Origin: Sarea resinae
Lineage: Eukaryota
Direction of reading: 5' to 3'
Assembly (NCBI GenBank): GCA_026026165.1
Contig: JAPEUD010000022.1
Coordinates: 186,001-250,000, forward strand
Length of the DNA stretch: 64,000 bases
Positions 48,326 to 50,773 of the stretch are shown here, piece by piece. Each line of letters starts with the position of its first letter. Position 1 is the stretch's first letter. Position numbers and translations under genes: made by a program. The notes below the pieces were generated by a model, which saw only the letters and a program-made list of their open reading frames with translations, was not told the origin of the DNA and did not search any database.

Positions 48326-49391
48326 ATGGCGCCCAAGATCGCAATCGTTTTCGTGAGTTCCCGTCCCCACCTCTCCCCTCTTGCCCTTCCTTCCCACTGA
48401 GCTCGCCGGCTTTCTGCACGACGTTGCCATATCTCCTCTGTTTTTCTCCCTTCTATTTAAACCCCACAAGGAACGATCCTCTCGTCTATGGTGTGCAACT
48501 GGCTGACTTTGGACAAACAGTACTCGATGTACGGCCACGTCCAGAAGCTCGCCGAGGCCGAATTGGCTGGTATCAAGGCAGCTGGCGGCTCGGCCGATCT
48601 CTTCCAGTAAGGCTGGCGTCCTCCTACTCCTCCTCCTCAACTCTTTCTTCCACCCCTCTTATCATCACATACATACCATACCCTCACGTCTCCGACGGAA
48701 GAGGCCCCTTACCATTCAACACACACACAAAACACACCTCAAACTAACCGCCCTACCCTCCCAGAGTCAGCGAGACGCTCCCCGAGGACGTGCTCTCCAA
48801 GATGCACGCGCCGCCGCACGACAGCACGATCCCGACGATCGACCCCAAGACGCTAGAGAGCTACGACGGCGTGCTCTTCGGGATCCCGACACGGTACGGT
48901 AACTTCCCCGCGCAGTGGAAGGCGTTCTGGGACCACACGGGGGCGCAGTGGCAGACGGGCGCCTACTGGGGCAAGTACGCGGGCGTCTTCGTGTCCACTG
49001 GTACTGCCGGCGGCGGCCAGGAGACCACCGTCATCTCCACCATGAGCACCCTCGCCCACCATGGCATGATCTTCGTCCCGCTCGGCTACAAGCACACCTT
49101 TTCCATCATGGCCGATCTGAGCGAGGTCAGGGGTGGCTCCGCCTGGGGCGCCGGCACCTTTTCCGTGAGTTTTCTTTCCCTTTCCTTTCCTTCCCTTTCT
49201 CCTTGGACCCCGCATCGCTCTCCCTCCTCTCTCTCTCAGAGATCAGCCAGCCCCCCACAACCCCCACCAAACTAACAGACGCCCTCCAGGCCGCCGACGG
49301 CTCCCGCATGCCCACGGAGAAAGAACTCGAGCTCGCCACGATCCAAGGCAAGACCTTCTACGAGGCCGTCGCCAAGAGCGCCGGCGCATGA
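48326..49391 (+). CDS. Flavodoxin-like NAD(P)H:quinone oxidoreductase (WrbA/Pst2/Ycp4 family), 204 aa
   Basis: Exons 48326-48352, 48521-48606, 48765-49164, 49290-49391; KIAIVFYSMYGHV, FGIPTRYGNFPAQWKAFWD, GGGQETT, GGSAWGAGTF; TATAAA at 48142-48147. Confidence 0.96.
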
Positions 49392-49631
49392 CTAGATGAC
49401 AGCAGCAAGGGCGCTCCCACTGGTACCACTACTGGTAATACTACTGCTGGTACTGGTGCGGGTGCGGGTACTGGCACGGCAGCGTCTACAAAGGAAGAAG
49501 AAGAAGGAGGCGTCAAGAACGGAGCTGGAGCTGGAAATGGAGCAGGGAAGGGCGGGGAACAACAACAGCAGCCGGGCAAAAAGGAAAGCGAGGGCCCGTG
49601 CGGTCTCCCCGCCAAATGCACCATCCTCTAA
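49389..49631 (+). other. Putative stop-codon readthrough extension (UGA CUAG) ending in CaaX box CTIL
   Basis: TGA 49389-49391 followed by CTAG; 79 open in-frame codons ending GPCGLPAKCTIL, then TAA 49629-49631. Confidence 0.8.
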
Positions 49632-50773
49632 CCCCCCAACCCGCCGGTTTTTGTTCCCCGCGACCTTTTTCTTTCCTAAAAAAGAAAAAAAAAAACCAGA
49701 TTCCATGTCTACTTTCTTTCTTTCGCTCGTAGCTTGTCGGTTTTTCTTTTCTTTTGCTACCTCGAACCAGTCAGTCAGTACTCAATAGCCTGTCAACGTT
49801 AGAGATAGACCAATCAATCTCACGTCTCATTAAACTTTAGTTGCCCGATACGGGAGACAAAAAAACCCCGCGTCATTCGAGCTTTCGACCCAATAATCGC
49901 CCCTAGTGATATTCGCTAGCAGAGACATGATTGCACGAATGAAGACAGCTAAAAAAAAAGAAATGGGCTCTGATTTCTTTGGCTTTTCCGCCCAGCCATC
50001 CATCAATCAATCACCTTCGCTCCCTCCCTCCCATTTTCACTACCGTCGAGAAAAAATCAAACGAGAAAATGAAAGACAAGGTGGCCTAGTAATAATACCG
50101 AGAAGCCATCTTCGCTGCCAGAAAGCTCGGGATATTGTGTCTGTTTTTTGACTCCTATAAACAGGCCAGGCAAGCCAGGGGCTCGATCTCTTCACCAGGC
50201 CAGCCTCATGCACATTTTCCGCCCCGCCCATGTCTCAAAGGAAATAGTATTCGTTAAATGAAGATGCTAGTAGCTAAGTAAGATGAGGCTCGGACAATCA
50301 ATTAGGTCTTTCTTGCACTTCCTTATAAAAGGAGAAATAAAAGAAGAAGAAGAGAAAAAAAAAAGGCTTGGCAACGCTAAGAAAGAAGCTCTTGGCTGCA
50401 ATAAATAAAGCCCAGACGATTTTTATATCCTTTCGACTCCCATGGAGAGGCTACACAAGCTAGCCCTTCATTGCTTCACCGGCCCAGCATCCTGCACCTT
50501 TTCGCTCATGTCAAAGTAAAGATAACAGCCCTAAGATGAGAAAACTACTGGCCAAGATGAGGTTTCGACAAATGGGTCTTCTTGTGGTTTTTTTCAGCCG
50601 ATTCAAGCCACGAACAATAAATAGATTCGACAATGTAGGTGAGAGAAAGAAAGATTTGCGGTGCTGGTAGAACACAAATCAGAGACCAGCAGGCGTGGAA
50701 AGAAGAGCACCGATTCCAGCATTTGCCTCTGGGAGGAACAAAACAAAGCTACTGACTGATTCAGCGCCGTTTG

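Follow-up and report, generated by a model that had tools for sequence, protein, structure and literature searches.

The stretch analyzed here, hereafter the window, comprises 64,000 nucleotides (nt) of Sarea resinae DNA (contig JAPEUD010000022.1, positions 186,001 to 250,000 of the forward strand). It contains a gene for a flavodoxin-like quinone reductase whose 204-codon frame closes with GCA TGA CTA G and then stays open for 79 further codons, ending in GPCGLPAKCTIL immediately before a TAA. A prediction made from the letters of the window had described this arrangement as stop-codon readthrough that appends a CaaX prenylation tail; the stop, its context and the open frame are as it described them, and the translated tail is identical to the peptide that it quoted. 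On the basis of a transcript contig that keeps the stop, related loci that keep stop, context and tail, and the coding signature of the tail, we propose, with a probability of about 0.8, that programmed readthrough of UGA-CUA-G produces a minor 284-residue isoform, which would be prenylated, probably palmitoylated and tethered to a membrane, beside the soluble 204-residue enzyme.

The stop codon, its transcript and the gene around it

Three sequencing runs (X1 to X3) hold parts of the window, all as contigs, and parts of the gene without cover in them carry no weight in what follows. Contig 7 of the metatranscriptome X1 aligns to 49079-49164 and then to 49290-49779, with intron 3 removed and with the TGA and the whole tail present and unspliced, and no difference from the DNA of the window is listed at the TGA. 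Because intron 3 is missing, this contig derives from processed RNA, and the lack of a listed difference at the TGA in an independent RNA-derived contig argues against an assembly error. The comparison of RNA with DNA at the TGA, which the original prediction had put forward as a check, gives a spliced transcript contig that retains the TGA and shows no splicing around it. In addition, 12 metagenome loci carry an intron-free body of 203 to 205 codons, followed by TGA and then by the tail; since L059, which is closely related to some of them, is interrupted by an intron where the window has intron 3, these 12 loci are most simply explained as assembled transcripts.

Contig 7 comes from a slightly different strain, with a 6-nt deletion and a 12-nt insertion in the tail and with indels of 4, 1 and 1 nt after the TAA. 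Strains differ by whole codons in the Gly/Ala-rich repeats of the linker (12-nt GGAGCTGGAGCT insertion, 6-nt deletion; window 49520 and 49455), a variation typical of repeat slippage in which the frame is kept.

The four exons of the gene lie on the + strand, and the last of them, counted through the TGA, spans 49290-49391 (Table 1). Spliced contigs confirm intron 1 (runs X2 and X3) and intron 3 (X1 contig 7), and intron 2 was placed by its GT..AG ends, the frame and agreement with intron-free relatives. Exon 3 matches the Pfam family FMN_red (E 1.8e-10, 41 bits against a cut-off of 24) and is 60 to 79% identical to fungal proteins named Pst2, NADH-quinone oxidoreductase, WrbA and minor allergen Alt a 7. 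Judged by these sequence matches, the enzyme body is a WrbA/Pst2-type flavodoxin-like NAD(P)H:quinone oxidoreductase (type IV). In an AlphaFold2 model of an intron-free relative (L034), residues 1 to 204 adopt alternating strands and helices, with predicted local distance difference test (pLDDT) values of approximately 46 to 92 by block; the order of strands and helices in this one model is that of an α/β flavodoxin-like fold. Residues 205 to 259 of the same model have pLDDT values below 50 and no secondary structure, and the tail is therefore taken to be a flexible tether. A Pfam search with the tail alone matched no family.

Table 1. Features of the quinone reductase gene and its tail, in window positions
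Feature	Positions	Strand	Description and support
Exon 1	48326..48352	+	ATG, 9 codons MAPKIAIVF; joint 48352>48521 (GT..AG) in spliced contigs of X2 and X3
Exon 2	48521..48606	+	3' end placed by GTAAGG donor and junction sequence in intron-free relatives
Exon 3, flavodoxin-like NAD(P)H:quinone oxidoreductase core	48765..49164	+	Pfam FMN_red; 3' end confirmed by X1 contig 7
Exon 4, final 33 codons of the 204-residue short form	49290..49388	+	Sequence and X1 contig 7
Putative leaky stop with context TGA CTA G	49389..49395	+	Sequence; TGA itself at 49389-49391
Low-complexity linker of the predicted readthrough tail	49392..49592	+	67 codons, Gly/Thr/Ala/Glu/Gln-rich; sequence and translation
Anchor motif GPCGLPAKCTIL	49593..49628	+	Upstream Cys 49599-49601, CaaX box CTIL 49617-49628
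True terminal stop TAA	49629..49631	+	Sequence; directly after CTIL
3' untranslated region (UTR), at least to 49779	49632..49779	+	Reach of X1 RNA contig 7

The Cys of CTIL occupies the fourth-from-last position, and the TAA follows without a gap. Stop-to-stop stretches of at least 79 codons make up 310 of 4180 in the window (7.4%), and a CaaX-like tetrapeptide precedes 12 of 4186 stops; a chance coincidence of a long open frame with a CaaX box is already unlikely from this single sequence. Two other readings of the region were considered and rejected. An independent small open reading frame, such as a pheromone-like precursor, does not suit a window tail without Met, and Met occurs in only 10 of 67 distinct tails from the window and its relatives. 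On the minus strand, the tail is overlapped by antisense open frames that are 129 and 89 codons long (49392-49781 and 49358-49627); as a gene they were rejected as an effect of coding-strand composition, one minus frame being open in 38 of the 67 tails and the others in 6 and 4.

Conservation of stop, context and tail in relatives

Scanning metagenomes for the pattern GPCGLPxKC gave 216 stretches, 182 of which were confirmed, and the best 80 of the 182 were analyzed; together with the window they comprise 67 distinct tail nucleotide sequences. At all 80 loci, the D-G-S-R anchor of the last exon is in frame with the tail, and exactly one stop stands between them, 29 to 34 codons past the anchor. 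That all 80 related loci repeat the stop together with its context, the frame and the terminal motif rules against chance. The original prediction required that orthologs keep the TGA-CTA context, a single open frame joined to the enzyme body and a terminal C..CaaX, and each of these is borne out. The first stop is TGA in 65 of the distinct sequences, TAA in 2 and TAG in none, and the codon after it is CTA in 47, CTG in 15, CTC in 1, ACG in 3 and ATC in 1, so that TGA-CTN occurs in 62/67 and TGA-CTA-G in 38/67. The tails measure 46 to 99 codons (median 61), and all 67 end in C-a-a-X followed by a stop, with C-x5-C-a-a-X spacing.

Nucleotide conservation is highest at the stop and at +3 to +10 (approximately TGA CTA GAT GG), where it exceeds that of the enzyme's own last codons. 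Of the 138 Leu codons that lie in the final 33 codons of the body, 7 are CTA, versus 47 of 63 Leu codons at the first position of the tail; a codon that is rare in the body and dominant after the stop suggests that selection acts on the RNA, not on the amino acid. The second, terminal stop serves as a built-in control: it is TGA in 28, TAG in 23 and TAA in 16 of the distinct sequences, with no preference, and it follows that the first stop's identity is under selection. Stop identity and downstream context are thus both selected.

A final Leu in a CaaX box directs geranylgeranylation, and this lipid is accordingly expected on the CTIL of the window. The original prediction of a C-a-a-L substrate for geranylgeranylation stands as an expectation for the window; across the family, the last residue is Leu in 39 of the 67 distinct tails and another residue in 28 (Met 16, Ser 5, Gln 3, Ala 2, Ile 1, Val 1). 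Because the last residue varies, the conserved feature would be prenylation in general, with geranylgeranylation expected for CTIL only.

The tails carry a coding signature. Their other two + frames hold 112 and 212 stops. Greedy pairing of the loci gave 30 pairs, of which 23 were too diverged or mis-overlapped (proportion of synonymous differences, pS, in the tail at least 0.45) and 7 close pairs were kept for the indel count. In the tail, the proportion of nonsynonymous differences (pN) is below pS in 7/7 close pairs, and 8 of 8 tail indels in these pairs are multiples of three, versus 5 of 33 in the 3' UTR. Pooled over the 30 pairs, many of them saturated, the ratio of nonsynonymous to synonymous substitution rates (dN/dS) amounts to 0.29 in the tail, compared with 0.23 in the final 33 codons of the body. 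Across all 30 pairs only 73 of 235 tail gaps are multiples of three, a count taken from a nucleotide alignment that is unreliable at this divergence. By these substitution patterns and the stops in its other frames, the tail evolves as protein.

Public protein models point the same way by a separate route. A protein search with exon 3 only, restricted to proteins longer than 233 residues, gave 672 matches, of which 120 were listed, and G-P-C-G-L-P-x-K-C-a-a-X is present in 79 of these 120 long-form proteins, 75 of the 79 ending right after the CaaX box. As the query held the body alone, this recurrence is independent of the later motif-based search. By public name, these motif-bearing proteins belong to Aspergillus, Penicillium, Fusarium, Colletotrichum, Podospora, Alternaria, Pyrenophora, Botrytis, Sclerotinia, lichen fungi and other groups. 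Where body and tail are joined differs from model to model, even between Fusarium species that are nearly identical, and residues near the canonical C-terminus are always missing; P0035 differs from the closely related locus L060 only by 14 missing codons, which contain the stop. Inconsistent junctions are seen, for instance, in P0053-P0056, P0066 and P0068 (Fusarium) and in P0035 and P0107. The mini-introns are likely devices by which gene predictors step over the stop, that is, annotation artefacts that hide it. The artefact would be systematic, with long models using implausible mini-introns and standard models stopping at 204 residues.

When models were aligned with loci, the stop fell in a gap of the model in 52/78 cases and the other 26 were too distant, except P0072, which reads W; only 2 model-locus pairs are at least 70% identical. 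Several gene callers take the TGA for a Trp codon, which yields body-W-L(D/H)G-tail proteins (P0072, P0123, P0146-P0149, P0151, P0152 and P0213). An exhaustive profile search of 1.84 billion representatives returned 186 matches, 150 of them listed, and the 27 that span the stop position were inspected: W at the stop is followed by L in 7 and by a different residue in 2, the region is skipped in 2, the stop position is occupied by R in 1 and by Q in 1, 1 ends soon after, and 13 have contiguous tails of other types. Contiguous CaaX tails include those of Saccharomyces cerevisiae Ycp4p and a Huiozyma protein (...SCCTVM), Candida tropicalis YCP4 (...CSKCIIM) and a Rhizomucor pusillus protein (...KKCFCM). 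Since stop-less tails occur in yeasts and in Rhizomucor, a tailed flavodoxin-like protein is widespread in fungi.

Among the more divergent tails, the Lasallia pustulata model P0007 carries a run of eight Lys and then F-P-D-K-C-E-I-Q, with no upstream Cys; its polybasic stretch may stand in for the putative palmitoylation site. P0213, P0307, P0308 and P0178 have W (TGA) and then L after the body, and their tail motif is ...F-C-G-I-C-T-I-M, not GPCGLP; P0178 continues beyond the CaaX box, as if its stop were read as Gln. A further type comprises P0225, P0302, P0261, P0278, P0290 and P0294 (one of them named Rhizomucor pusillus), whose Lys/Glu-rich contiguous tails end in C-F-C-M or C-F-C-I. These Rhizomucor-type tails place CaaX-tailed flavodoxin-like proteins outside Dikarya as well.

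Proposed readthrough and the competing explanations

UGA followed by CU has been reported to suffice for efficient readthrough in the fungus Ustilago maydis, and UGA-CUA-(G) to be a weak termination context that is used in animals too (PMC4207609). UGA CUA G is also named as the high-readthrough motif (PMC12233894). The window carries exactly this TGA CTA G context, and we therefore read the locus as a case of programmed readthrough. In the mechanism that we propose, most ribosomes would terminate at the UGA and release the soluble 204-residue enzyme, while a minority, at a stop that terminates poorly, would insert a near-cognate amino acid and translate the 79 further codons. The extension would consist of a disordered linker of approximately 67 residues and the anchor. 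Processing of CTIL would involve prenylation of its Cys (with geranylgeranyl), cleavage of the three residues behind that Cys and carboxymethylation. Six residues upstream of the CaaX Cys lies an invariant Cys that is a likely palmitoylation site and would provide a second membrane signal. The product would be a minor Ycp4-like isoform with a lipid anchor, which, on its own or in oligomers mixed with short subunits, would tether quinone-reducing activity to a membrane, probably the plasma membrane or eisosomes.

Several observations weigh against this interpretation. Five of the 67 distinct sequences lack TGA-CTN (ACG in 3, ATC in 1 and one TAA-CTG), and no stimulatory RNA structure was found in the 120 nt after the stop (z-score -1.1, no better than shuffles). 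The 80 loci were ranked by similarity to a query that contained the stop region, and stop-less forms may be under-sampled among them. Both the openness of the tail from the last upstream stop and the multiple-of-three indels follow in part from the way in which the tail is defined. The invariance of G-P-C-G-L-P is stricter than a palmitoylation site would need, and among the loci the search pattern itself imposes part of it. Contigs drop rare variants, and a minor spliced or edited RNA could go unseen in them. In two Joint Genome Institute (JGI) gene calls, P0125 and P0312 (contigs of 1058 and 1289 nt), no stop separates the body from the tail; these represent either spliced transcripts of an intron-bearing subgroup or a lineage that lost the stop. 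Finally, 6 of 66 distinct loci (L004, L018, L021, L023, L035 and L065) have a well-formed intron over the stop.

This last intron, found in a Sordariales-like subgroup, is 63 to 75 nt long; its GTGCGT donor begins 5 nt ahead of the stop, its branch site reads CTAAT or CTAAC, and its acceptor is AG. L022 carries it as well. Its lengths are all multiples of three and it contains no further stop, so that splicing and readthrough would give the same frame; the Sordariales gene models all join right after the same Gly. In this subgroup, the long form may be made via splicing, via readthrough or via both, and the intron may be a switch between the two ways of making it. Applied to the gene in general, alternative splicing would mean that an intron with its donor upstream of the stop removes the TGA and that intron retention gives the short form, which would agree with the 79 of 120 listed public proteins that join body and tail without a stop and with the contiguous P0125 and P0312 from intron-blind calls. 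We consider this very improbable. The window has no GT within 20 nt upstream of the TGA, the sole in-frame candidate being a 42-nt GTCGCC..AAG without a branch site, and X1 contig 7, although spliced at intron 3, is unspliced across the TGA. A consensus-like in-frame intron across the stop is lacking in 61 of the 67 distinct sequences, and outside the Sordariales the model junctions conflict among near-identical Fusarium species and involve deletions as small as 14 codons. Were the region spliced out, body and tail would have no need to share a frame, nor the interval between them to be free of other stops, yet both hold in 80 of 80 loci.

We give equally little credence to a fully efficient stop followed by an untranslated relic of an ancestral Ycp4-like tail. 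The 204-residue short form is the usual annotation, and the stop-less tails in yeasts and Rhizomucor make a tailed ancestor plausible, but in a relic stops and frameshifts would accumulate, whereas all 80 loci keep the frame, the terminal motif is retained and the tail has pN below pS. The same low standing applies to the TGA as a selenocysteine codon: no Rfam family matched 49000-50600, hence no selenocysteine insertion sequence (SECIS) element was found there, two relatives use TAA as first stop, and fungi are reported to be without selenocysteine machinery (PMC4207609).

Slightly less probable still is adenosine-to-inosine (A-to-I) editing of the mRNA from UGA to UGG at a developmental stage, with the tail made from edited mRNA: hundreds of stop-loss events are reported in Fusarium graminearum and Neurospora crassa, but fungal editing is biased toward UAG (PMC13123824), which is 0/67 among the first stops here and 23/67 among the second; editing leaves unexplained the conserved downstream CTA-G, a context of ribosomal readthrough; long forms with the tail motif occur, by name, in genera far outside Sordariomycetes (Aspergillus, Penicillium, Alternaria, Botrytis and lichen fungi); and no difference is listed for the RNA contig at the TGA, even if minor variants are hidden in contigs.

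Relation to known systems

Ras-type anchors combine a CaaX box with a second signal, which is either an upstream palmitoyl-Cys or a polybasic run. The tails described here resemble them in having a Cys at -4 followed by aliphatic residues, a second Cys six residues upstream and, in one relative, eight Lys instead. They differ in that a long, disordered tether carries a metabolic enzyme as its cargo and in that lipidation is here a prediction.

The closest counterpart in layout is Ycp4 of Saccharomycotina, which likewise joins a flavodoxin-like quinone reductase body to a low-complexity extension of approximately 50 to 90 residues that ends in a Cys-rich CaaX box. The original prediction had invoked Ycp4 as a tailed paralog of Pst2, and the comparison holds, as Ycp4p and C. 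tropicalis YCP4 carry contiguous low-complexity tails with Cys-rich CaaX ends. Candida albicans Ycp4 has also been described with a C-terminal CaaX tail that is likely lipid modified (PMC4556627), and Ycp4 has been reported to be palmitoylated (bioRxiv 10.1101/2023.04.27.538084). In yeast, however, the tail is stop-less and belongs to a separate paralog, whereas here one gene has a conserved UGA-CUA between body and tail. The anchor motif is a different one too, here G-P-C-G-L-P-x-K-C-a-a-X, and the tails are compared by layout and not by orthology. The gene would work like Ycp4, yet with its frame interrupted by a stop we do not class it as a Ycp4 ortholog.

In mechanism, the nearest precedents are the peroxisomal isoforms that arise by readthrough (fungal Tpi1, Pgk1, Rpe1 and Art1; mammalian LDHB and MDH1), which use the same stop and context (PMC4207609, PMC4359377) and share with the present case a minor extended isoform, a terminal targeting signal and conservation of stop and context across species. 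Here, in contrast, the extension of 46 to 99 residues ends in a lipidation box with a second Cys, not in a type 1 peroxisomal targeting signal (PTS1), and would lead to a membrane surface, not to the peroxisomal matrix. Human readthrough extensions have been screened for prenylation sites, and no case is named in the available text of that study (PMC4359377). A-to-I stop-loss editing in Sordariomycetes (e.g., of DBF2) also derives a short and an extended form from one gene in place of yeast gene duplicates, but acts on UAG at the RNA level in the sexual stage and adds destabilizing tails (PMC13123824); the present case has UGA as its stop, never UAG, and a tail with a conserved targeting motif at its end.

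Among the full texts searched, with subscription journals and supplementary tables outside the scope, no paper was found that links readthrough with Pst2, Ycp4, Alt a 7 or WrbA-type proteins. The same full texts gave no description of a CaaX box appended by readthrough, Table S1 of PMC4207609, which covers U. maydis TGA-CT frames, being outside the scope, and the string GPCGLP was absent from them. What is known, then, is UGA-CUA-G readthrough that adds a C-terminal targeting signal; what appears to be new is a predicted lipid anchor on a quinone reductase, conserved across many classes of filamentous ascomycetes. If the interpretation is correct, lipid anchoring would join the short list of functions of programmed readthrough, which consists mainly of peroxisomal targeting and a few regulatory tails, with a case conserved over a whole fungal subphylum.

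Protection against lipid peroxidation has been reported for flavodoxin-like quinone reductases at the plasma membrane or eisosomes, and how they are brought to these sites is said to be unknown (bioRxiv 10.1101/2023.04.27.538084); in C. albicans, flavodoxin-like proteins are reported to protect against oxidative stress (PMC4556627). Readthrough of UGA-CUA-G would offer a testable mechanism by which such enzymes reach the plasma membrane or eisosomes in filamentous fungi. Judged by public names, two mould allergens, Alt a 7 and Cla h 7, belong to this gene family, and a hidden long isoform would matter for their description.

With somewhat less assurance than for the window, we think it probable that a single Pst2/Alt a 7-type gene is recoded throughout the Pezizomycotina, that UGA-CUA-G sets the ratio of soluble to prenylated and palmitoylated enzyme, and that this is the first instance of readthrough-gated lipid anchoring. 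If so, fungi would have arrived at three solutions for a tailed quinone reductase: duplication with a stop-less tail in yeast Ycp4, readthrough in most Pezizomycotina, and an in-frame intron over the stop in the Sordariales-like group.

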